A stretch of DNA of 18,036 nucleotides, taken from Thermoanaerobaculia bacterium (lineage in GTDB: Bacteria; Acidobacteriota; Thermoanaerobaculia; Multivoradales; UBA5704). The notes below the pieces were generated by a model that saw only the letters and a list, made by a program, of their open reading frames with translations, was not told the origin of the DNA and made no database searches. How positions within the stretch are numbered: the stretch's first letter is position 1; each line of letters starts with the position of its first letter. Shown here one piece after another: positions 3,098-17,895 of the stretch. The stretch lies in NCBI GenBank assembly GCA_044226625.1, contig JBGAGQ010000091.1, positions 1 through 18,036 on the forward strand. The letters run 5' to 3'. A program made the position numbers and the translations under genes.

Positions 3098-3813
3098 CAG
3101 GCCCCCCGGCGCAGCTCGCACGCGAGCCAGGTGCGGGCGAGCTTCAAGTCGCGCTCGACCGTGGCGTGGGAGAGGCCGAGATGGCCGCAGGTCTCGTCGA
3201 TCGTCATGCCGGCGAAGTAGCGCAGCTCGACCACCTGGGCGCGGCGGGCGTCGACCTCGGCGAGCCGCAACAGTGCCTGATCCAGCGCCAGCAGCTCGGC
3301 CTCTGCGTCCTCCGTCGGGCCGCCCCCCTGCGCGCTCGCGGAAGCCCCGAGGTCCGACGGTTCCCATTCCATCGGGCGCACGCCGCCGCCGCGCTTCTCG
3401 GCCTGCCGCCGCCGCGCCTCGTCGACCAGCACCTGGCGCATCACCCGGGCGGCGATGGCGAAGAAATGCCCCCGGCTTTCCCAGGAGACGTCGGCTCCCG
3501 CCAGACGGAAATAGGCCTCGTGCACGAGCGCGGTCGCCTGCAGAGTCCACTGGCCCGCGTCGCGTTGAATCTGCGCGCGGGCAAGCCGCCGCAGCTCGTC
3601 GTAGACCAGGGGCACCAGGCGATCGAACGCGGCGCGGTCGCCTCCCCGCCACGCCTGGAGCAGAACCGTGACGTCGGCTCTCTCGCCGGCCTCGGCTGGT
3701 CGAGGGAGCGGATTGACGGGTGGATCGACGGACGGGTCGCCCGCGACCGGGAGTCGACGAACCGGTGGACCGGCAGGGCTCAAGGGTGAGGTCCTCGCGG
3801 TGGAGTGTGCCAC
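3097..3813 (-). CDS. ECF-type RNA polymerase sigma factor (TIGR02999/ECF43-like, kinase-associated)
   Basis: Family-typical segments DVTVLLQAWRGGDRAAFDRLVPLVYDELRRLA, TLQATALVHEAYFRL, HFFAIAARVMRQVLVDEARRRQAEKRGGG, and region 4 VVELRYFAGMTIDET...ATVERDLKLARTWL. Start uncertain (GTG 3813 or TTG 3783; no clear RBS). Confidence 0.9.
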   Translation of the reverse strand: MAHSTARTSPLSPAGPPVRRLPVAGDPSVDPPVNPLPRPAEAGERADVTVLLQAWRGGDRAAFDRLVPLVYDELRRLARAQIQRDAGQWTLQATALVHEAYFRLAGADVSWESRGHFFAIAARVMRQVLVDEARRRQAEKRGGGVRPMEWEPSDLGASASAQGGGPTEDAEAELLALDQALLRLAEVDARRAQVVELRYFAGMTIDETCGHLGLSHATVERDLKLARTWLACELRRGA

Positions 3814-3877
3814 CGGAGCCGGAGGAGACTCAAGCCGCGCGGTTTTGTCGAAACCGCGGGTCCGGCGAAGTGGATCC

Positions 3878-4591
3878 TCAGGGGGTGATCAGGCCGCCCG
3901 CGAGCGCCTGGAGCGCTCGGCCGTACGCCGGGGCGATGAGCGCCTTGAGCAGCAGGTCGACGAGGATGCCGGCTCCCGCGAGCGCGAAGATCTTCCCGTC
4001 GTCCCGATCGAAGGGCCAGGCCTTGCGGACGAGCAGAGGCCGGGCCAGCAGGCTGCCGAGGAGGACGAAGGCCGCCACCCGGATCACCGACCAAGGCACC
4101 CAGGCCACCAAGGAGCCGAGCAGCGGATGGTGGGACGCCGCCGCGTATGAACCGACGAAGTAGCTCATGTAGGCGGTGAGCGCGGCGCCCAGCACCAGCC
4201 CCAGATACCCCGCCGAGACGTAGGTGAGCACGGCGAACAGGCTCAGGTGGAGCAGATGGATCGGCACGAACTGGAGCGGCGAGTTTTCCGGCGCCATGCC
4301 GGTGGAGATCCAGCCGAACATCTCGTGCCGGTAGGGCTCGCCGTTCACGATCCCCCGAGCGGCCGCCTCGGGCGCGAGCTGAGTCAACGCGATGACGCCG
4401 AGCGAGAGGAGCACCGCCCAGGTCATCCCCGCGAACCAAGCGCCCCGCACGTCCTCCTCCTTCACCCGGGCGCGGAACGTCGGATAGAGCGTGAGCGGAG
4501 CGAGGAGCGGAAGCAGAATTTGGCCGCCGGGAACGAACGCGAGCGCCACGACCAGCGGCGTCGCGAGCAGTGCGATCCGCCCCCGGCTCAC
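3878..4591 (-). CDS. Multi-pass membrane protein of unknown function (237 aa)
   Basis: Several hydrophobic helices from VSRGRIALLATPLVVALAFVP onward. GTG at 4591 overlaps the SDR stop (GTGA), so the longer 4903 start is unlikely. Confidence 0.8.
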   Translation of the reverse strand: MSRGRIALLATPLVVALAFVPGGQILLPLLAPLTLYPTFRARVKEEDVRGAWFAGMTWAVLLSLGVIALTQLAPEAAARGIVNGEPYRHEMFGWISTGMAPENSPLQFVPIHLLHLSLFAVLTYVSAGYLGLVLGAALTAYMSYFVGSYAAASHHPLLGSLVAWVPWSVIRVAAFVLLGSLLARPLLVRKAWPFDRDDGKIFALAGAGILVDLLLKALIAPAYGRALQALAGGLITP

Positions 4592-5301
4592 AGCGCCCCT
4601 CCCGCCGGCCCGACGTGGATCTCTTCGAGGAGGCTCGACTCCGGAGCGTCGAGCGCCCAGGCGATGGCGCGGGCGATCTCGCGGGGCGGCACCATCTTCG
4701 ACCGATTCCAATCGCCCGGCATGTCGTCCCAGATCGGCGTATCCGTGGCGCCGGGGAAGAGCGCCGAGATCCGGACGCCGCTGCCGGCCAGCTCTTCGCG
4801 CAGCGCGGCGACCAGACCGTCGAGCCCCCACTTGCTCGCGCAATAGCCAGTCCATCCGGGGAAGCCCCGGCGCGCCGCGGCGGAGAGAATCGGAAAGAAC
4901 CACCCCCGGCGCCGCTCCTTCATCCCCAGCAGAAAGGACCGTAGTAGATGGAAAGTCCCGCCGAGATTGACCGACAGCATGGCGGCGAACGCCTCGGGCG
5001 TTAGCGTCTCGAGCGGACCGATGGTGGCCACTCCGGCCGCCGGCACCAGGATCTCGGCGCCGCCGTAACGGGCGTCGACCTCGGCAGCGGCCCGGTCGAC
5101 CGCCGCCGCGTCGGCCACGTCGCAGATGAGGGCCAGCCCCTCCCCCCCGGCCAGCGAGAGCGTTTCGTCGAGCGGCTCGAGCCGCCGGCCCAGGAGCACC
5201 AAGGGAAACCCGCGGCGGCCGAGCTCGAGCGCGATCTCCCGGCCGATGCCCGAGCCGGCGCCGGAGACGACGGCGGCGAGAGGGGACGTAGCGGACGGCA
5301 T
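4588..5301 (-). CDS. Short-chain dehydrogenase/reductase (classical SDR, probably NADP-preferring)
   Basis: Rossmann motif SGAGSGIG, basic GRR after beta-2, AAG (NNAG equivalent), catalytic S...YCASK, PGATDT. Confidence 0.93.
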   Translation of the reverse strand: MPSATSPLAAVVSGAGSGIGREIALELGRRGFPLVLLGRRLEPLDETLSLAGGEGLALICDVADAAAVDRAAAEVDARYGGAEILVPAAGVATIGPLETLTPEAFAAMLSVNLGGTFHLLRSFLLGMKERRRGWFFPILSAAARRGFPGWTGYCASKWGLDGLVAALREELAGSGVRISALFPGATDTPIWDDMPGDWNRSKMVPPREIARAIAWALDAPESSLLEEIHVGPAGGAL

Positions 5302-5308
5302 GCCTCCG

Positions 5309-5317
5309 AGCTTACCA
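5309..5317 (-). promoter_or_regulatory. Putative extended -10 promoter (TGG TAAGCT) 7 nt upstream of the SDR ATG; probable leaderless transcript
   Basis: Minus strand reads cTGGTAAGCTcggaggcATG. The GGAGG is only 1 nt from the ATG, too close to act as a normal RBS. Confidence 0.45.
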
Positions 5318-5362
5318 GCCGAGAAGCCCGGAGCGCCTCACGCCCGAACGCCTCGCTCGGGA

Positions 5363-5800
5363 TCAGCTCGCGCTCTGAGCCTCACTCGGAGTCGGCGCGG
5401 CGAGATCCTCGAACACGATGCCGATGTCGGAAACGCCGCTCGCGCGGCAGAGGTCGAGGAAGTCAGCGACCCGGCCGTACTCCAGCTCGCCATCGGCCGC
5501 GACGAACACCACCGGGACGGACCGCCCGGAGAGCGCCTCGCCGAGCCGTTCGGCCAGTTGCAGCCGAGGGATCTCGGTCGAGTTCAGATAGATCACGCCG
5601 TTACGGTCGAGGCGAAGGATCAGCTGCGAGGTCGGAGGCGGCGCGACCTCCTTCCGGCTCGGCGGCACCTGGACCGAGTGGCCCAACTGGACCACAGGCG
5701 TCAGGCACATGAAGATGATCAGCAGCACCAGGACGACGTCGACCAACGGGGTGATGTTGATCTCGCTGCGCGGGCCGCGGCGATCGCTCGAAAGATCCAT
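5363..5800 (-). CDS. exbD: Biopolymer transport protein ExbD/TolR (145 aa)
   Basis: SEINITPLVDVVLVLLIIFM TM motif with the essential Asp; periplasmic VFVAADGELEYGRVADFLD...GVSDIGI. Strong RBS AAGGAGGT (5809-5816) 8 nt before ATG 5800. Confidence 0.9.
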   Translation of the reverse strand: MDLSSDRRGPRSEINITPLVDVVLVLLIIFMCLTPVVQLGHSVQVPPSRKEVAPPPTSQLILRLDRNGVIYLNSTEIPRLQLAERLGEALSGRSVPVVFVAADGELEYGRVADFLDLCRASGVSDIGIVFEDLAAPTPSEAQSAS

Positions 5801-5927
5801 GGTCTCGTACCTCCTTGCCGGCTTGGACCGACCGAACCGAATCCCGGTTCCCGGACCGCTGCGCATTCCTCGGCCGCGGGGCGGGATAGACTCCAGAGGT
5901 CGCTTCTTTCCTCGGGGAGGGTTCCGC

Positions 5928-7376
5928 GTGGCCGAGAGCCCGGGTGGTAGCCGCCAACCGTTGTCGAGCGTCGATTTCGCCTGGCTACGGATGGACGAGC
6001 CGACGAACCTGATGCTGATCAACGGCGTCCTGGTCCTCAGGGCCCCGCTCGCCATCGGGAGCCTGCGCGCGGTCATCGCCGAGCGCCTCCTGCCGATCGC
6101 GCGCTTCCGGCAACGGGTGATCGAGGGGCCGGGCGGCGAGACGCGGTGGGAAACGGCGGAATATTTCGAGCTCGACCGGCACGTTCTCGAAGAGGCGTTG
6201 CCCGAACCGGGCGGCGACCGCGAGCTCGCCGCGGTGATCGACCCACTGCTCGGCGAGCCGCTCGACCGCTCGCGACCGCTTTGGGAGTTCCGGCTGATCC
6301 ACAACTACCAGGGGGGCTCGGTGTTGATGGGGCGCATCCATCACGCCGTGGGCGACGGGATGGCGCTGATGCTCGTCCTGCTGTCGCTCGCCGACCGCCA
6401 CCCCGACAAGCGGACCGCCGTGCCCTTCGTGAGCGCGGGCGAGCTCGAGCGAGCGGTCGATCCCCCGGCCGAGCGGGGCGGCAATCCTTTTACCCGAATC
6501 TTCCAGCAAACACGGCCCGACGTGGCCTCGATCCGCAGCGAAGCCGAGCAGGTGATGCCCGAGGGGATGAAGCTGCTGCTCCAGCCGAGCGAGGCGTTTC
6601 GATCGCGCCGGATCCTCACCGCCCTCTCCTCGGTTGCCTCGTTCCTCCGCCTGGTCGCCCGATGGCCCGATCCGCGGACCCTATTCAAAGGACCGCTCGG
6701 CGTGGCGAAGAAGGCCGCCTGGTCCGAGCCTCTCCAGGTCTCGGACGTCAAGGCGCTCGGCCAGGCGTTCGGCGCCTCGATCAACGACGTGCTGCTCACC
6801 GCAATGGCCGGCGCGCTGCGGCGCTATCTGCTCGCTCGCGGCCAGCGGGCCGACCGGCTTTCGTTCCGCGCCGCAATGCCGGTCAACCTGCGCGGCCTCG
6901 AAGAGATGGCCGCCCTGGGCAATCGCTTCGGCTTGGTCTTCCTGTCGATCCCGGTGGGCATCGCCGATCCGGTCGAGCGCCTGGCGGAGCTGCGGCGACT
7001 GTCCAAGAAGCTACGGCTGTCGACCGAGCCGGTGGTGGTCTACGCAATCCTCCGCCTGCTCGGGAAGGTGCCGCATTTCATCCAGCGTCTCGTCGTTGGG
7101 ATCTTCGCCACCAAGACCACGGCGGTGATGACCAACGTCCCCGGACCGCGCGAGGAGCTCTTCCTCGCCGAGGTGCCGATCCGCGACATCTTCTTCTGGG
7201 TGCCGCAATCGGGCCGGGTGGGCCTCGGGATCAGCATCTTCAGCTACAACGGCCGCGTCCGCCTGGGCATCGGCACCGACGCGGGACTGGTCGACGATCC
7301 CGAGCGGATCGTCGAGGAGTTCCACCGCGAGTTCGAGGACATGCAGCGCCTCGCCCCGGCGATGGCGAGCCGCTAG
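5928..7376 (+). CDS. Wax ester synthase / acyl-CoA:diacylglycerol acyltransferase (WS/DGAT, 482 aa)
   Basis: N-terminal LSSVDFAWLRMDEPTNLM, PLDRSRPLWEF, catalytic HHAVGDG (HHxxxDG), SINDVLL, MPVNLR, TNVPGP, SIFSYNG. GTG 5928 preceded by GGGGAGG (5914-5920). Confidence 0.92.
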   Translation: MAESPGGSRQPLSSVDFAWLRMDEPTNLMLINGVLVLRAPLAIGSLRAVIAERLLPIARFRQRVIEGPGGETRWETAEYFELDRHVLEEALPEPGGDRELAAVIDPLLGEPLDRSRPLWEFRLIHNYQGGSVLMGRIHHAVGDGMALMLVLLSLADRHPDKRTAVPFVSAGELERAVDPPAERGGNPFTRIFQQTRPDVASIRSEAEQVMPEGMKLLLQPSEAFRSRRILTALSSVASFLRLVARWPDPRTLFKGPLGVAKKAAWSEPLQVSDVKALGQAFGASINDVLLTAMAGALRRYLLARGQRADRLSFRAAMPVNLRGLEEMAALGNRFGLVFLSIPVGIADPVERLAELRRLSKKLRLSTEPVVVYAILRLLGKVPHFIQRLVVGIFATKTTAVMTNVPGPREELFLAEVPIRDIFFWVPQSGRVGLGISIFSYNGRVRLGIGTDAGLVDDPERIVEEFHREFEDMQRLAPAMASR

Positions 7377-8381
7377 CTACTCCCAGCCGCGCCACGACTG
7401 GAGCATCTGGATGTAGTTCGCCCGCTCGTACGCCGACGGGTCGGGGCACTTGGCGAGGCTCATGTTGCCGCGCATCTCGCGCACCGAAGCGTAGCCGCGC
7501 TCGCCCATCCAGCCGACCACCTCGTCGTAGACCAGACGCAGGTAATCCGGGCCGTGTTTGAGCAGGGCCGAAACCATCTGCACCGCGTGCGCTCCCGCCA
7601 TGATCGCCTTGATCGCATCCTTCGCTCCGTGAACGCCGCCGCTCGCGGCGAGCGACGGGCGGATCTTGCCCGAAAGGATCGCCAGCCAACGCAGGCGCAG
7701 GGCCAGCTCGTCCGGCGTGGAAAGGTGCAGGCTGCGCTCGACCTCGAGATTTTCGATGTCGAGGTCGGGTTGGTAGAACCGGTTGAACAACACCAGCCCA
7801 TCGACCCCGGCGGCGTCCAGCCGGAACGCGAGGTTCGCGAGCGCCGTGTGGAAGGGCGATAGCTTCACCGCCACCGGAATCTTCACCTCGGCCTTGACCG
7901 CCGCCGCCATCTGGACGATCCGGGTTTCGATCTCCGGGCCGGTCTCGTAGAGGTCGGTCGCGAGCCGGTAGACGTTCAGCTCGATCGCGTCCGCCCCCGC
8001 CTGCTCGAGCAGCGTCGCATGGGAGAGCCAACCGCCGGGGGTGACGCCGTTCAACGACGCGATCACCGGGATGCGCACCGCCTCCTTGATCTTTCGCAGC
8101 TGCTCCAGGTATTCGTCGGGGCCGAGCGCGAAGTCGTCGCGCGCGGGAAGGTAGGAGGTCGCCTCGGCGAAGGACTCCCCCGCCTCTTCGAACGCCGCGA
8201 CGGTCGCGAGCGCTTCGGCGGCGAGCTGCTCCTCGAACAGCGAGTGCATGACGATCGCCGCCGCCCTCGAGTCCTCCAGACGCCGCACGGTATCGAGATC
8301 GTCGACCATCGGCGAGGCGCCGACGATCAACGGATGGGCGAGCGGCAGCCCGAGATAGGTGGTGGTCATGTCGAGGGTCAT
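7377..8381 (-). CDS. Dihydroorotate dehydrogenase-like FMN protein (nifJ-associated DHOD_like family, 334 aa)
   Basis: TTYLGLPLAHPLIVGASP, SLFEEQ, IPVIASLNG, GADAIELN, IPVAVKLSP, GLVLFNRFYQPD, LAASGGVH, AYERANY. ATG 8381 overlaps the nifJ stop (ATGA). Confidence 0.9.
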   Translation of the reverse strand: MTLDMTTTYLGLPLAHPLIVGASPMVDDLDTVRRLEDSRAAAIVMHSLFEEQLAAEALATVAAFEEAGESFAEATSYLPARDDFALGPDEYLEQLRKIKEAVRIPVIASLNGVTPGGWLSHATLLEQAGADAIELNVYRLATDLYETGPEIETRIVQMAAAVKAEVKIPVAVKLSPFHTALANLAFRLDAAGVDGLVLFNRFYQPDLDIENLEVERSLHLSTPDELALRLRWLAILSGKIRPSLAASGGVHGAKDAIKAIMAGAHAVQMVSALLKHGPDYLRLVYDEVVGWMGERGYASVREMRGNMSLAKCPDPSAYERANYIQMLQSWRGWE

Positions 8382-11300
8382 GTCGCGATCTCCTCCTCTT
8401 CGGGCTGGTACTCGGCCACCGTGATCCCCGCGAGCTGCCGGTAGATGTCCCATCGCTCGGCAGCCTGGCGCTCGGCCGCGCGGGTGAGCTCGCGGAACCG
8501 CTCCCGATCGATCTTCTCGACCATGCGGAAGCGCGCCTCGTTCTTCATGTAGTCGCGCACCCGCACTTTGGGAGTCGCCGAATCGAGTTTGAGCGGCGGC
8601 TCGCCCGCCGTCACCCGCCGCGGATCGAAGCGATAGAGCGGCCAGATGCCGCTGCCGACCGCGAGCTCCTGCTGGCTCACGCCGTGGACCATGTCGTAGC
8701 CGTGGGCGATGCAGTGGCTGTAGGCGATCAGCAGCGACGGCCCGGGGAACGCCTCGGCTTCGAGGAACGCCTGGACGGTCTGGTTGATCTTCGCGCCGAA
8801 CGCGATCTTCGCGACGTAGACGTGGCCGTAGGCCATCGCGAGCAGCCCCAGGTCCTTCTTGCCGCGGCTCTTGCCGGCGGAGGCGAACTTCGCCGCCGCG
8901 CCGAGCGGCGTCGCTTTCGACGCCTGGCCGCCGGTGTTCGAGTAGACCTCCGTGTCGAGCACCAGGAGGTTCACGTTCCTGCCGCTCGCGATCACGTGGT
9001 CGAGCCCGCCGTAGCCGATGTCGTAGGCCCAGCCGTCGCCGCCGACCAGCCAGACGCTCTTCGGCACGAGGGCGTCGGCGACCGCGGCAAGACGCTCTGC
9101 GGAGGCACCTCCGATCTCACCCAGCCGCGCCTTGAGCGCCGCCACCTGCTCGCGCCGCTCCGCGATGCCTGCCTCGGTCGAAGGCTCGGGCGCGAGAAGC
9201 GCGCCGCGCAGTTCGTCGCCGAGCTCGGGCCCGAACGCCCGCAACAGGTCGCGCGCGTGCTCGCCCTGGCGCTCGACCGCGAGGCGCATCCCGAGGCCGA
9301 ACTCCGCGTTGTCTTCGAACAGCGAGTTCGACCAGGCCGGGCCGCGTCCGTCGCGGTTGGTCGTGTACGGGGTGGTCGGCAGGTTGCCGCCGAAGATCGA
9401 AGAGCAGCCGGTCGCGTTCGCGATCAGCAGCCGATCGCCGAACAGCTGGGTGAGCAGTTTGATGTAGGGCGTCTCGCCGCAGCCGGCGCACGCGCCCGAA
9501 TACTCGAACAGCGGCTCGAAGAATTGCGAGCCCTTGGCGTCGATCCTCTTGATCCGCGAGCGGTCGGTCTCGGGCAGCTCGAGGAAGAAGGCGTAGCGCT
9601 CCCGTTCGCGTTCGCGCACCGGCCGCTGCGGCGCCATGTTGATCGCCTTCCGGCGCGGATTCGTCTTGTCCTTGGCCGGGCAAATCTCGACGCAGAGGTT
9701 GCAGCCGGTGCAGTCCTCGGGTGCCACCTGTAGTGTGTAACGGAGGCCGCCAATCTCGTTCCCCTTGCCCGGGGAGGAGAGGAAGCCCAACGGCGCGTCG
9801 GCGAGAGCGCTCTCGTCGTACGCCTTCGCGCGGATCGCCGCGTGCGGACAGACGAACGTGCACTGGTTGCACTGGATGCACAGGTCGGGCTCCCAGAGAG
9901 GAATCTCGAGCGCGATGTTGCGCTTCTCCCATTTCGCCGTGCCGACCGGCCAGGTGCCGTCGACCGGGAACGCCGAAACCGGAAGCAGGTCTCCCTTGCC
10001 CGCGAGCATCAACGCCGTCGCGCGCTGCACGAAATCGGGCGCCTCGACCGGCACCGTGGGGGGCAGCGGCCGGCCGTTCGGCGCGGTGTCCGGAACCGCG
10101 ACCTCGTGCAGGCTCGACAGGGTCGCGTCGACCGCCCGGAAGTTGCGCTGGACCAGGTCGGCGCCTTTCTTCTCATAGGTCTTTTCGATCGCGCCTTTGA
10201 TCGCAGCGATCGCCTCCTCGCGCGGCAGGACGCCGGAGATGGCGAAGAAACAGACCTGCATGATCGTGTTGATCCGGCGCCCCATGCCGGTTTCGCCCGC
10301 GACCCTGTAGGCGTCGATCGCGAAGAGGCGCAGCTTCTTCCTCTGGACCTCCTCCTGGACCTCGAGCGGAAGATGGTCCCAGACCGACTCGGGCCCGTAC
10401 GGAGCGTTCAGCAGGAAAACCGCGCCCGGCACGGCGGCGGCGAGGAGGTCGAAGCGGGTGAGGAAGTCGAACTGGTGACAGGCGACGAACGAGGCGCTCC
10501 GGATCAGATACGTCGAGCGGATCGGATCGGGACCGAACCGAAGATGCGAGATCGTCGTCGCGCCCGACTTCTTCGAGTCGTAGACGAAATACCCCTGGGC
10601 GAAGTTGTCGGTCCCCTCGCCGATGATCTTGATCGTGTTTTTGTTCGCCCCCACGGTCCCGTCCGAGCCGAGGCCGTAGAAGATCGCCCGCACGACGCTC
10701 GCGGGCTCGAGATCGAAGCCGTCGTCGATCGGGAGCGAGAGATGTGTGACGTCGTCGCGGATGCCGACCGTGAAGCGGCGGCGCGGAGCCTCGCGCGAGA
10801 GCTCGTCGAAGATCGACGCGACCATGGCCGGCGTGAACTCCTTCGAGGAGAGCCCATAGCGGCCGGCGACGACCGCGGGCATCGATCCCGTGGGTAGCGT
10901 GGCGGCAGCCTGGGCCTCGGCGAGCGCGCCGAGAACCGCTAGATACAGCGGATCGCCCACCGCCCCCGGCTCCTTGGTCCGGTCGAGCACGGCGAGCCGA
11001 CGGGCGGAGGTGGGGAGCACGGACAGGAAGTGGCCGAGCGAGAACGGCTGGAACAGGCGGACCTCGATCAGGCCGACCCGCTCGCCCCGGCTCGCCAGGA
11101 ACTCGACCGTCTCCTCGGCCGCGCCGCATCCCGAGCCCATCATCACGATCACGCGTTCGGCTTGCGGATGCCCCACGTAGTCGAACAGCCGGTAGCGCCG
11201 GCCGGTGCGATCGGCGAAGCGCTCCATCTCTTCGGCGACGATCCCCGGGCAGGCGTCGTAGTAGCCGTTCGCCGCTTCGCGCGCCTGGAAGAACGTGTCG

Positions 11301-11965
11301 GGGTTCTGCGCCGTGCCGCGCAACACCGGGTGATCGGGCGAGAGCGCCCGCGTCCGGTGCGCCGTGATCGCCTCTTCGGGTATCAGCGCGCGGAGGTCGT
11401 CGTCCGAAAGCTCCTCGATCTTCGCCACCTCGTGCGAGGTGCGGAAGCCGTCGAAGAAATGGAGGAACGGAATCCGCGACCGAAGCGTCGAAGCGGTCGC
11501 GATCGCCGCCAGGTCGTGCGCCTCCTGGACCGAGGCGGAGGCGAGCATCGCGAAGCCGGTCGACCGGCACGACATGACGTCCGAGTGGTCGCCAAAGATG
11601 GAAAGAGCGTGCGTGGCGAGCGAGCGCGCCGCGACGTGCATCACGAACGGCGTGAGCTCGCCGGCGATCTTGTACATGTTGGGGATCATCAGCAGGAGCC
11701 CCTGCGACGCGGTGAACGTCGTCGCCAGCGCCCCCGCTTGCAACGCGCCGTGGACCGCCCCGGCCGCTCCTCCCTCGGACTGCATCTCGATCACCTCGGG
11801 GACCGTGCCCCAGAGGTTCTTCGAGCCCTTGGTCGCCCACTCGTCGGCCAGCTCGCCCATCGCCGACGACGGAGTGATCGGATAGATCGCGATCACCTCG
11901 CTCGTTCGATAGGCGACCGAAGCCGCCGCCTCGTTGCCGTCGATCGTCATCCGCCGCCCTGGCAT
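8378..11965 (-). CDS. nifJ: Pyruvate:ferredoxin (flavodoxin) oxidoreductase, single-chain (1195 aa)
   Basis: DGNEA, YPITP, EMQSEGGA, TFTASQGLLLM, two ferredoxin motifs (CIQCNQCTFVCP, CTGCNLCVEICP), GACAGCGE, ANATGCSSI, TPP motif GGDGWAYDIG. RBS AGGAGG (11973-11978) 7 nt before ATG 11965. Confidence 0.97.
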   Translation of the reverse strand: MPGRRMTIDGNEAAASVAYRTSEVIAIYPITPSSAMGELADEWATKGSKNLWGTVPEVIEMQSEGGAAGAVHGALQAGALATTFTASQGLLLMIPNMYKIAGELTPFVMHVAARSLATHALSIFGDHSDVMSCRSTGFAMLASASVQEAHDLAAIATASTLRSRIPFLHFFDGFRTSHEVAKIEELSDDDLRALIPEEAITAHRTRALSPDHPVLRGTAQNPDTFFQAREAANGYYDACPGIVAEEMERFADRTGRRYRLFDYVGHPQAERVIVMMGSGCGAAEETVEFLASRGERVGLIEVRLFQPFSLGHFLSVLPTSARRLAVLDRTKEPGAVGDPLYLAVLGALAEAQAAATLPTGSMPAVVAGRYGLSSKEFTPAMVASIFDELSREAPRRRFTVGIRDDVTHLSLPIDDGFDLEPASVVRAIFYGLGSDGTVGANKNTIKIIGEGTDNFAQGYFVYDSKKSGATTISHLRFGPDPIRSTYLIRSASFVACHQFDFLTRFDLLAAAVPGAVFLLNAPYGPESVWDHLPLEVQEEVQRKKLRLFAIDAYRVAGETGMGRRINTIMQVCFFAISGVLPREEAIAAIKGAIEKTYEKKGADLVQRNFRAVDATLSSLHEVAVPDTAPNGRPLPPTVPVEAPDFVQRATALMLAGKGDLLPVSAFPVDGTWPVGTAKWEKRNIALEIPLWEPDLCIQCNQCTFVCPHAAIRAKAYDESALADAPLGFLSSPGKGNEIGGLRYTLQVAPEDCTGCNLCVEICPAKDKTNPRRKAINMAPQRPVRERERERYAFFLELPETDRSRIKRIDAKGSQFFEPLFEYSGACAGCGETPYIKLLTQLFGDRLLIANATGCSSIFGGNLPTTPYTTNRDGRGPAWSNSLFEDNAEFGLGMRLAVERQGEHARDLLRAFGPELGDELRGALLAPEPSTEAGIAERREQVAALKARLGEIGGASAERLAAVADALVPKSVWLVGGDGWAYDIGYGGLDHVIASGRNVNLLVLDTEVYSNTGGQASKATPLGAAAKFASAGKSRGKKDLGLLAMAYGHVYVAKIAFGAKINQTVQAFLEAEAFPGPSLLIAYSHCIAHGYDMVHGVSQQELAVGSGIWPLYRFDPRRVTAGEPPLKLDSATPKVRVRDYMKNEARFRMVEKIDRERFRELTRAAERQAAERWDIYRQLAGITVAEYQPEEEEIAT

Positions 11966-12088
11966 GTCACGGCCTCCTGGGAGCAAGAACCGCTCTCCGA
12001 GAAGCTACTGCCGGGGGAAATTCCAGTCGCCACCCGGCCGGGCGGGCGGCAGGTTCTCGATGCCTAGGCGGGCTCGCGGGGCCCATGG

Positions 12089-12212
12089 AGGGAGCTCCGG
12101 GCCGCTGGGTCGGTTTTTGGACCCGGCTCCGGCTCCTTCGGGTGCGCGCCTGCGGCGCTGCCAGTCGCTCTCGCCGGGTCAAAAACCGACGCTGGGCGGC
12201 CCTCGTCGGACT
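12089..12212 (+). repeat. Structured intergenic repeat, copy A (REP/MITE-like, ~124 bp)
   Basis: About 84% identical by manual alignment to the reverse complement of 12978-13100. Internal inverted repeat GTCGGTTTTT(G)GACCCGGC (12109-12127) / GCCGGGTCAAAAACCGAC (12173-12190). Confidence 0.88.
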
Positions 12213-12252
12213 TCCGAGGATGGCGAACGCGCGTGTTCGCGCCCTTAATCCA

Positions 12253-12305
12253 GTCGAAGCCCCTCGCGGGTCATTCCAGCCAGCCCGGTTTGAGGGGTTC
12301 CCTAC
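12253..12305 (-). terminator. Hairpin starting at the vapC stop codon (terminator-like or REP-like)
   Basis: Minus strand GTAGGGAACCCCTC...GAGGGGCTTCGAC with an inner CGGG/CCCG pair. No clear U-tract. Confidence 0.35.
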
Positions 12306-12685
12306 ACTCGCTCCAGCTGAGGCAGCGCGTCGAAATGCCGATCCCGGGCGGAGAGAACCAAGCCATTCTCGAGGACTAGGGCGGCGATCCAAAGGTCGTT
12401 CGTGGGGATCGGAGTCCCTTGCTCCTTGAGCTGCCGATAGAGGCTCGCTTAGTGCCGGGTCGTCGCTTCGGTCGCCCAAAGCACCGCGACTCCCGGCTTG
12501 GAAAGGAAGCGCTGCAGGATCCTCTCGTTCTCTCGGCCTCGGGTACCCAACGAAAACCCCGCGCGGAGCTCGGCCAACGTTACGAAGGGTAAGAAGACCG
12601 CCTCGGCCCGCTCGACAAGCCGTTCGAGGTCAGCATCGCCCCGGCAGAGATCCGAGAACCGATTGGTGTCGAGCGCGAGCCTCAA
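12302..12685 (-). pseudogene. vapC: VapC-family PIN-domain toxin interrupted by one in-frame TAA (12449-12451)
   Basis: Reads MRLALDTN...FVTLAELRAG...ATTRH*ASLYRQLKEQGTPIPTNDLWIAALVLENGLVLSARDRHFDALPQLERV* in one frame. PIN motifs DTN, E, D-x-W-IAA and RDRHF are present. TTG 12685 overlaps the antitoxin stop (TTGA); GTG 12691 is an alternative start. Confidence 0.88.
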
Positions 12686-12924
12686 CGCCACAACTCGGGA
12701 TCGATCTTCCTCTGCTCTTCGAGGGCGCGATCCACTTCCGGATCTTCGACCCAGTTTCCGGCCACGTCGGAGAGATCCCGTCTCTTGAGTTCCTCTCCCC
12801 GAAGAGCAAAGGCCTGAAGCAAAGCCTCGAGAGCAACCTCGTTTAGGCTCTTTCGCTCCGCCTGGGCTCGATGGCGCAACGCTTGGTCGAGGTGCGGGGG
12901 TACGTTGCGGAGGGTGTACTGCAT
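12682..12924 (-). CDS. Ribbon-helix-helix antitoxin (VapB/FitA-like, 80 aa)
   Basis: MQYTLRNVPPHLDQALRHRAQAERKSLNEVALEAL has the Arc/FitA RHH pattern (beta strand TLRN, SLN turn); acidic C-terminus; lies directly upstream of and overlaps the PIN gene. Confidence 0.85.
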   Translation of the reverse strand: MQYTLRNVPPHLDQALRHRAQAERKSLNEVALEALLQAFALRGEELKRRDLSDVAGNWVEDPEVDRALEEQRKIDPELWR

Positions 12925-12959
12925 GCAGGCATCTTAGAGATCCCATGCAGGCAGGTCAA
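12922..12959 (-). promoter_or_regulatory. Sigma70-type promoter of the TA operon (TTGACC-17-TAAGAT), leaderless, with a 10-bp direct-repeat operator candidate
   Basis: Minus strand TTGACC (12954-12959), 17 bp, TAAGAT (12931-12936), GCCTGC, ATG. TGCCTGCATG occurs at 12944-12953 and 12922-12931. Confidence 0.7.
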
Positions 12960-12977
12960 GGAGACTAACCTGCCCGC

Positions 12978-13100
12978 AGTCCGAGGAGGGCCGGATCGTC
13001 GGTTCTCGACCCGGCGGAAGCCGACTGGCAGCGCCGAAGGCGCGCACCCGAAGGAGCCGGAGACGGGTCGAGGAACCGACCCCGGGGCCTGGAGCTTCCC
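12978..13100 (-). repeat. Structured intergenic repeat, copy B (inverted relative to copy A)
   Basis: Reverse complement aligns to 12089-12212, including a 41-bp core with one mismatch. Own internal stem GTCGGTTCTCGACCCG (12998-13013) / CGGGTCGAGGAACCGAC (13064-13080). Confidence 0.88.
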
Positions 13101-13108
13101 ACCCGGCA

Positions 13109-13789
13109 CTACATCTCGGCCCACCTCCGAATCAGGTTGTGGTACACGCCCGTGAGCTGAACGATCGGCGCCGGGTCCGCTAGGTGCTCGCCAGCCCGCC
13201 GAATCCCGGTGTCGAGGTCGAAGAGCAGTGTGCGCGCGCCGTCGTCGCGCACCATGCTCTGGATCCAGAAGAACGAGCAGACGCGGGTGCCGCGGGTGAC
13301 CGGCCGGACGTGGTGGAGGCTGGTCGAGGGGTAGAGCACGAGATCCCCCGCCGGGAGCTTCACGGGATGGACGCCGTAGGTGTCCTCTACGATCAGCTCG
13401 CCCCCGTCGTAGGTGTCGGGCTCGGCGAGGAAGAGCGTCGCGGAGAGGTCGGTGCGGATGCGATGCGGCGTTCCCGGGACCTGGCGGATCGCGTTGTCGA
13501 CGTGGGTACCGAAGGACTGGCCGCCGGAATAGCGGTTGAACAGCGGCGGGAAGACCTGGAGCGGCAGCGCCGCCGAGACGAACAGGGCGCTCCGCTGAAG
13601 CGCGGCGAGGATCATCTCCCCCACCTCGCGTGCAACCGGGCTTCCCTCGACCAACTGCTCGTTGTCTTTCGCTCGGGCCGACTGCGGGCCGGCGGTCGCC
13701 TTGCCGTCGATCCACTCAGCTGAATCGAGCAGTCGGCGTGCCTCGGCGACCTGTTCGGACGTGAGGAGAGAGGGTATTTGAATCAGCAT
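13109..13789 (-). CDS. piuC: PKHD-type Fe(II)/2-oxoglutarate-dependent hydroxylase (PiuC/YbiX family, 226 aa)
   Basis: [77 protein letters not shown] 6 nt before the ATG. Confidence 0.95.
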
Positions 13790-17760: not shown

Positions 17761-17895
17761 ATTCCTGATCCAGGAGAATGAATCCTGAACCGGGGGAATC
17801 ATTTTTTAACTCCCAGAATCGTTTTTTAAGTCCGGGAATCGTTTTTTATCTCCAGGAATCGTTTTTCGACCCTGAAAATCGATTCTCCAGCTTAA
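17761..17895. repeat. Degenerate 20-bp tandem repeat array, consensus ~GAATCGTTTTTTANNTCCNG
   Basis: GAATG/GAATC/AAATC recur at 17776, 17796, 17816, 17836, 17856 and 17876, each followed by a T/pyrimidine tract. GC is 40% (56/140 over 17761-17900). Confidence 0.85.

Follow-up and report, generated by a model that had tools for sequence, protein, structure and literature searches.

Hairpin-forming MITEs (miniature inverted-repeat transposable elements) include ERIC (~127 bp), Correia/NEMIS, RUP and Nezha, as set out in the sections of a review devoted to them (Delihas 2011, PMC3184786). Miniature elements may also bracket other genes: in the passages describing IMU (Poirel 2009, in PMC3184786) and TIME-COMP1/2 (PMC4133298), a 5-bp duplication surrounds the whole unit and transposition was seen. 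Two further kinds of system are relevant here, namely ccdO157, which the corresponding section of PMC3184786 presents as a decaying toxin-antitoxin (TA) system in a variable spacer bearing a repetitive extragenic palindromic (REP) sequence, and the Rickettsia palindromic elements (RPE), portrayed in the relevant part of PMC10969869 as in-frame insertions in protein-coding genes. Here we examine the complete contig JBGAGQ010000091.1 (C99; 18,036 bp, hereafter the window) of a Thermoanaerobaculia (Acidobacteriota) metagenome-assembled genome (MAG), GCA_044226625.1 (G000; 6.6 Mb in 133 contigs). In this window two inverted repeat copies of about 124 nt, A and B, stand on either side of a ribbon-helix-helix (RHH) antitoxin gene and vapC (Table 1).

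An earlier reading of the window (the original prediction) took the repeats and the genes between them for a candidate ~1-kb cassette mobilised in trans. We find it moderately probable instead that copy A is a MITE-like insertion, that copy B is a local segmental inverted copy and that RHH-vapC is a separate unit, not a cassette borne by the repeats. The value of this result is corrective, in that the apparent TA cassette would resolve into two independent things, a hairpin repeat that has been copied locally in inverted form and a broken vapBC that changes location. A full-text literature search found no publication mentioning both Thermoanaerobaculia and miniature inverted-repeat.

Two inverted copies with shared flanks

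The inverted repeats are real. BLAST aligned 12090-12212 with 13099-12978 at 84.7% identity over 124 nt, and a repeat search of the window recovered arms at 12090-12167 and 13022-13099 (78 nt, 88% complementary), well clear of the runner-up among inverted repeats of the window (38 nt at 74%). The alignment bears out the predicted core of 41 nt, shared by A and B with one mismatch, and the differences between their stems are compensatory changes. Since the genome holds just nine copies of the repeat in 6.6 Mb, for which about 0.01 pairs within 1 kb are expected (36 pairs x 2 kb / 6.6 Mb), the pairing of A and B is not attributable to chance. Each copy folds as a single long hairpin, copy A at -80.4 kcal/mol (z -3.55) and copy B no better than shuffled sequences, and no open reading frame (ORF) of 50 aa or more lies inside A or B alone. 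As predicted, 8 nt separate the end of copy B from the stop codon of piuC (13109-13111), and the copy is in sense orientation to that gene.

A 7-nt direct repeat without mismatch stands at the two ends of copy A (12103-12109 and 12190-12196), and the 7-mers flanking copy B are degenerate. Similarity between the copies extends beyond the copy A 7-mers, where one flank matches at 10 of 12 positions and the opposite flank at 15 of 16 (25/28 in total). The exact 7-mers are thus inside the stretch that A and B share, and therefore either one copy duplicates the other with its flanks or both belong to a private, longer subfamily. Because the likeness passes the duplication and enters the flanks, copy B is best read as a local segmental copy. 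The shared flanks have no further occurrence in G000, and a 33-nt pattern specific to A and B was found in one of 92 genomes of the taxonomic family, G000 itself, and in 0 metagenome records. With the element removed, the flanks of copy A would be expected to pair into a small hairpin, rich in GC, whose loop is at the 7-mer.

A hairpin repeat family in Thermoanaerobaculia

A covariance model (R1), built from eight distinct repeat copies of G000, was searched against 61 genomes (G000 and 60 relatives, E <= 0.001) and against 92 genomes of the taxonomic family, G000 included (E <= 1e-5). Nine copies were found in G000, where the ~45-nt core recurs seven times besides A and B. Two of the nine lie within a 2,053-bp tandem duplication on contig C93. 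Matches were present in 10 of the 61 genomes (0-37 each, G000 included). Among seven genus-mates, five had no match, one had 25 and one had 1, and genomes of other genera contributed 34, 37, 6, 4 and 1 matches. In the second set, 14 of the 92 genomes matched, with 1 to 23 copies each. Many of the matches are at contig ends.

The element is about 85-125 nt long, and in genus-mate G006 it is a 95-100-nt hairpin with two subfamilies that differ by compensatory stem changes. Paired arms, 19-35 nt in length, are present in 46 of 53 copies. Across 54 aligned copies, all eight outer-stem pairs had changed on both sides, a covariation score matched by 0 of 500 shuffles. The stems covary and the apical core is almost invariant across genera. 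This core is asymmetric, with one small apical hairpin whose loop holds inserts of variable length in G010, G015 and G016. At the gathering score no Rfam family matched the window, and the three matches in 11900-13300 were at chance level (E 0.67-1.9).

Flanks were compared for 46 of the 53 copies, after seven with a hairpin score under 8 had been dropped. Direct-repeat flanks agreeing at 7/8 nt or better occurred in 12 of the 46 copies, compared with 2.3% of mismatched flank pairs (permutation 0/5000). They are about 7-9 nt long and often A+T-rich in a G+C-rich genome. Most copies are without a flanking duplication; some have inverted flanks instead, and others sit within perfect palindromes that are short (8-11 bp). 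Some copies are truncated or have internal deletions. Covarying stems, a conserved apical core and duplication-like flanking direct repeats led us to class the repeat as MITE-like, not REP/RAYT-like (RAYT, REP-associated tyrosine transposase). It is short and without a transposase gene, forms a long hairpin, shows apparent target-site duplication and is dispersed in copies that vary between relatives. On these sequence characters the family is a putative low-copy, patchy, long-hairpin, MITE-like repeat of Thermoanaerobaculia.

The likeness to hairpin MITEs, as the relevant sections of PMC3184786 describe them, covers size, the lack of a gene, pairing ends, a mostly intergenic position, varying copy number, flanking direct repeats and truncated and internally deleted copies. 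In contrast to those elements, the present repeat has a low copy number (1-37) and a core that is better conserved than its ends, and no parent insertion sequence was found. The flanking repeats also differ, being ~7-9 nt, mostly A+T-rich and not TA, and many copies lie in perfect short palindromes. The comparison is one of description, with no sequence relation tested or seen. In G006 no parent element with matching ends was recovered, and the arm pattern outside full copies found only truncated or deleted copies; the assemblies are fragmented, and a parent insertion sequence may be unassembled in them.

REP elements carry a GTAG motif and are not known to make target duplications. The present repeats resemble REP and REPIN sequences in being GC-rich, palindromic and intergenic, and some copies in genus-mates start with GGTAG. 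They differ in their low copy number, in an asymmetric core that is not two inverted REPs, in their flanking duplications and in the absence of GTAG from A and B. A REP/REPIN variant, suggested by the original prediction together with a RAYT or Y1 transposase flanked by the same repeat, did not hold up. No such transposase stands next to a copy, and the Y1 transposase domain (PF01797) occurs in 53 of the 61 genomes regardless of the repeat. The sole match in G000 is on a contig (C79) that has no copy, and the matches listed for G006 are on contigs other than those with repeat copies.

In G090 and G091, two species of another genus, whole ~105-nt copies lie in frame and antisense between two conserved motifs of nonribosomal peptide synthetase (NRPS) adenylation domains, in successive modules (L158 on contig C61 of G091, 2227-2287, 5482-5541 and 8698-8758; L159 on contig C1 of G090, 2487-2547 and 5742-5802). 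Whole copies in frame within coding sequence are as expected of inserted DNA. They recall the RPE in being in frame within protein-coding genes, as described in that part of PMC10969869 concerned with them, but involve one gene family only, are not frequent and do not include copies A and B. Taken together, covariation, flanking duplications, palindrome sites, truncated copies and copies within NRPS genes fit a MITE-like insert and not a dedicated regulatory RNA.

Several smaller observations concern the copies outside the window. The units of the C93 duplication (L004, contig C93 of G000, 3563-7670) are ~100% identical apart from single-base length differences, carry one repeat copy each and adjoin a gene with integrase-core and Mu-transposase C-terminal domains (L004, 2335-3603). 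On contig C34 of G000 (8877-8900), 22-24 nt at the site occupied by the TA unit in G001 and G006 resemble the repeat core minus its central hairpin. This candidate remnant was not counted, as the loose pattern gave seven matches against three in a reversed-sequence control and nhmmer did not list it; four of the seven, that on C34 included, lie outside the full copies found by nhmmer and the model. The orientation of copies relative to neighbouring ORFs was mixed, and was not used as evidence because the ORFs had been called crudely by GC content at codon positions, which is unreliable.

A toxin-antitoxin unit probably placed independently of the repeats

The RHH gene overlaps the start of the PIN-domain gene vapC by 10 nt, and both stand under one predicted promoter, the sole promoter-like site found in 11850-13250, which contains a repeated 10-nt operator-like word. 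By domain content and arrangement this is a predicted type II VapBC module. The promoter, the antitoxin gene and vapC are therefore present between the repeats as the original prediction described them, except that vapC is not intact: an in-frame TAA (12449-12451) interrupts it at codon 81 of 129, at the position of a Tyr codon in three relatives. The stop precedes the regions with the last two of four PIN acidic residues, to which we presumptively assign their roles in this protein. An independent unitig of depth 13 from sequencing run X1 spans 12140-12754, including the stop, with no difference. Beyond the stop, the ratio of non-synonymous to synonymous change (dN/dS) in vapC is 0.05-0.10, as low as in the part that precedes it, suggesting that the nonsense change is recent; the antitoxin gene has a dN/dS of 0.03-0.09. 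In G006, vapC is also truncated, at its 3' end.

The same TA unit is found in G001, G003, G006 and G007 at 77-82% nucleotide identity with unrelated flanks, and homology starts exactly at the -35 box and stops at the vapC stop codon. Across five species of the genus, the unit (window 12302-12961; L082, L083, L086 and L092) has at least four genomic contexts and no recognisable ends. The TA of G001 and that of G006 have the same left neighbour, and the homologue of that site in G000 is without TA. The repeat model gave no significant match at these loci or at 46 further TA loci of other species (46 + 6 loci, best E 0.049). Like ccdO157, as presented in that section of PMC3184786, this is a chromosomal TA system whose intergenic site is variable, which some relatives lack or carry in defective form and whose spacer also holds palindromic repeats. 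It differs in being vapBC and not ccd, in having a different repeat and in that the TA here also changes location between species.

Evidence at the level of strains comes from assembled contigs and unitigs of X1, the probable source sample (93% of sampled words); runs with small shares (X2-X18) were left out of claims on strains or habitat. A 298-nt contig of X1 is 88% identical to the window over 12725-12961, continues with 13 other letters and resumes at 13109; by joining 12961 to 13109 it implies that a related strain has the TA unit beside piuC without copy B. Copies A and B have diverged by 15%, compared with a synonymous divergence between species of about 0.4-1.5; with near-neutral evolution of the repeats, the A/B duplication would postdate the separation of the species.

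Origin of the two copies

Under the reading that we favour, copy A would be the primary insertion, having entered a small GC-rich hairpin at its loop and duplicated 7 bp there, and copy B a diverged inverted duplicate of A plus the flanks of A, not a second transposition. Template switching at the long hairpin may have produced the inverted copy, and copy B most likely formed after the TA unit already adjoined piuC. The RHH-vapC pair would be a separate unit running from promoter to stop codon, placed differently among the species of the genus, and its toxin gene here probably gained a nonsense codon recently. At most, the repeats would provide the transcripts of piuC, the TA and nifJ with stable stem-loops.

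A number of points weigh against this reading. Only two 124-nt copies are known, and a private longer subfamily may have inserted twice; other copies also have hairpins that continue 8-11 bp beyond the usual ends. Neither an autonomous element nor a transposase with matching ends was found, so that transposition is deduced from the flanking repeats alone, in about a quarter of copies. MITEs do not usually have a core better conserved than their ends, and some further constraint is hinted at here. The junction lacking B is one 298-nt contig from a different strain, which could equally reflect a deletion of B. G000 is a MAG with an estimated contamination of 5.5%, and rare inversion or excision forms are invisible in contigs and unitigs.

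It is unlikely, in our assessment, that the 124-nt form represents a full-length private subfamily with a longer outer stem, of which A and B are independent insertions into neighbouring intergenic hairpins through local hopping. The shared flanks do lengthen the hairpin, and stems run 5-11 bp past the usual ends in about 9 of the 46 other copies and in both copies of a pair in G097, the only other close inverted pair seen (L160, contig C8 of G097, 2146-2207 and 5935-5996). The arms of that pair (62 nt, 97% complementary, 3.7 kb apart) bracket the housekeeping genes yceD-plsX-fabD-fabG, and each copy is at the centre of a perfect 8-11-bp palindrome. Similarity in the G097 pair nevertheless ends at the element ends, unlike that between A and B; no third copy of the long form was found in G000, the 92 genomes of the taxonomic family or a metagenome collection, and the 7-nt direct repeat of copy A is exact and inside the shared stretch.

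We consider it rather unlikely that the repeat is a structure-specific mobile element, targeting hairpin loops and recognised by some enzyme via its folded apical core, or else a structured RNA that has its own function, and that A and B record two neighbouring hairpins having been hit. This possibility is raised by the invariant ~45-nt core, the loop inserts, the palindrome-centred copies and the in-frame NRPS copies. The conserved apical core, insertion into palindromes and in-frame NRPS copies are odd features that merit attention in any case.

It seems improbable to us that the repeat is primarily a functional motif of structured RNA or single-stranded DNA that selection has retained on either side of the TA, for instance to insulate or stabilise transcripts, to bind a protein through its hairpin or to act as a ribozyme. 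The near-invariant apical core, the covarying stems and the variable-length apical loop inserts of G010, G015 and G016 would suit such a motif, as would three G-U pairs kept on one strand and the sense placement of copy B 8 nt after the piuC stop. Against it, the repeat has no Rfam family, is missing from most relatives, shows no consistent orientation to ORFs in a crude tally, has copies within coding sequence and is flanked by duplications, and the fold of copy B is no better than shuffles. G-U and A-C counts are balanced in the outer stem, the G-U excess consisting of three invariant core pairs, and a folding strand read from these counts was rejected on that ground.

Very doubtful is a composite non-autonomous transposon of the IMU/TIME-COMP kind, with the repeats as ends of a TA-carrying unit moved in trans. 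Inverted MITE-like copies do bracket a self-contained ~0.77-kb cargo between unrelated operons, and transposing MITE-bounded units are known from the parts of PMC4133298 and PMC3184786 that deal with them. As in IMU and TIME-COMP, two miniature elements enclose cargo, and the TIME-COMP1 copies are in opposite orientation according to the passage on that unit in PMC4133298. If true, this reading would make the locus a chromosomal analogue of such units for TA genes. Here, however, no direct repeat surrounds the unit: the sequences on the outer side of A and of B are homologous in inverted orientation, the pair of exact 7-mers encloses just copy A, and copy B carries the flanks of A. The A-TA-B unit was found in no other place in G000, in none of the other 91 genomes of the taxonomic family and among no metagenome, plasmid or phage matches. 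Cargo homologues elsewhere are free of the repeats, the related strain has the TA at piuC without copy B, no transposase with matching ends was found, and the copies are 15% diverged, with a fold of B no better than shuffles. The trans-mobilised cassette of the original prediction is not borne out by these results. Of the two findings that it named as speaking against it, relatives do carry the TA without repeats, but the repeat is not abundant.

That the repeats bound a segment which can invert or be excised and so switches the direction of the TA promoter is extremely improbable, for although they are inverted and bracket a promoter-containing stretch, a domain scan of the 12 large window ORFs detected no recombinase or integrase, the arms are 15% diverged, and no inversion or excision joint, of the kind suggested for checking, was listed in Logan contigs of four runs, which cannot show rare forms. 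An integron gene cassette was also rejected, as the copies are inverted, other copies are scattered singly and the scanned ORFs include no integrase; this was judged without attC sequence features.

A rearranged neighbourhood

In G006, a wax-ester synthase gene (window 5709-7376) is directly beside piuC, at a distance of 6 nt, and G000 therefore has an extra 7355-13108 between these genes. Relative to the G006 locus (L079, contig C73 of G006), this extra 5.75 kb comprises a dihydroorotate-dehydrogenase-like gene, nifJ, copy A, the TA unit and copy B; at its left junction the stop codons abut with no spacer. The block of the dihydroorotate-dehydrogenase-like gene and nifJ (7377-11966) occurs elsewhere only in G004, between other genes. 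After the synthase gene, G001, G003 and G007 have a third neighbour and G004 a fourth. In no relative searched is nifJ adjacent to piuC, and consequently an empty piuC-nifJ site for the 1-kb unit, proposed as a check, was not available in the genomes searched.

Copies A and B sit at the junctions of the nifJ block with the TA unit and of the TA unit with the piuC block. As judged from gene order, the repeats mark apparent breakpoints in a repeatedly rearranged region. The aspect of the original prediction that fared best is thus its view of the repeats as dispersed, structured, non-coding copies of a mobile type, now placed at synteny breakpoints. The family should be useful for annotation, with copies that break assemblies and sit at such breakpoints.

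Gene order and other features of the window

All genes around the repeats are on the minus strand, in the order TonB-dependent receptor, piuC-like gene, copy B, promoter, RHH gene, vapC, spacer, copy A and nifJ-type gene. The probable nifJ start is 124 nt past copy A. The spacer between vapC and copy A has no relative in the other genomes compared.

Table 1. Positions of the repeat copies and neighbouring features in the 18,036-bp window
Feature	Position	Strand	Details
Repeat copy A	12090..12212	+ (family-model orientation)	R1 76.1 bits at 12120-12181
Hairpin element proper of copy A	about 12110-12189		outer 13 and 16 nt also common to copy B
Repeat copy B	12978..13100	- (family-model orientation)	R1 64.8 bits at 13008-13068
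Predicted TA promoter	12925..12961	-	-35 at 12959-12954, -10 at 12936-12931
RHH (FitA-like) antitoxin gene, intact	12682..12924	-	26.7 bits to FitA-like_RHH PF22513, cut-off 27
vapC (PIN-domain toxin) gene	12302..12691	-	PF01850 E 6.3e-13 with stop read through
Spacer, vapC stop to copy A	12213..12301	-	89 nt, short GC-rich hairpin
piuC-like 2OG-Fe(II) hydroxylase gene	13109..13789	-	stop codon at 13109-13111
Pyruvate:ferredoxin oxidoreductase (nifJ-type) gene	8378..11986	-	probable ATG at 11965

At the contig end, the window contains about five units of 20 nt arrayed in tandem, together with a T-run (17774-17893). Similar arrays of ~125 nt occur at five other places in G000, on contigs C10, C79, C81 and C51 and, as part of one, on C9, and a further similar array is located upstream of the G003 TA unit, at a distance of about 640 nt (L091, 2068-2323).

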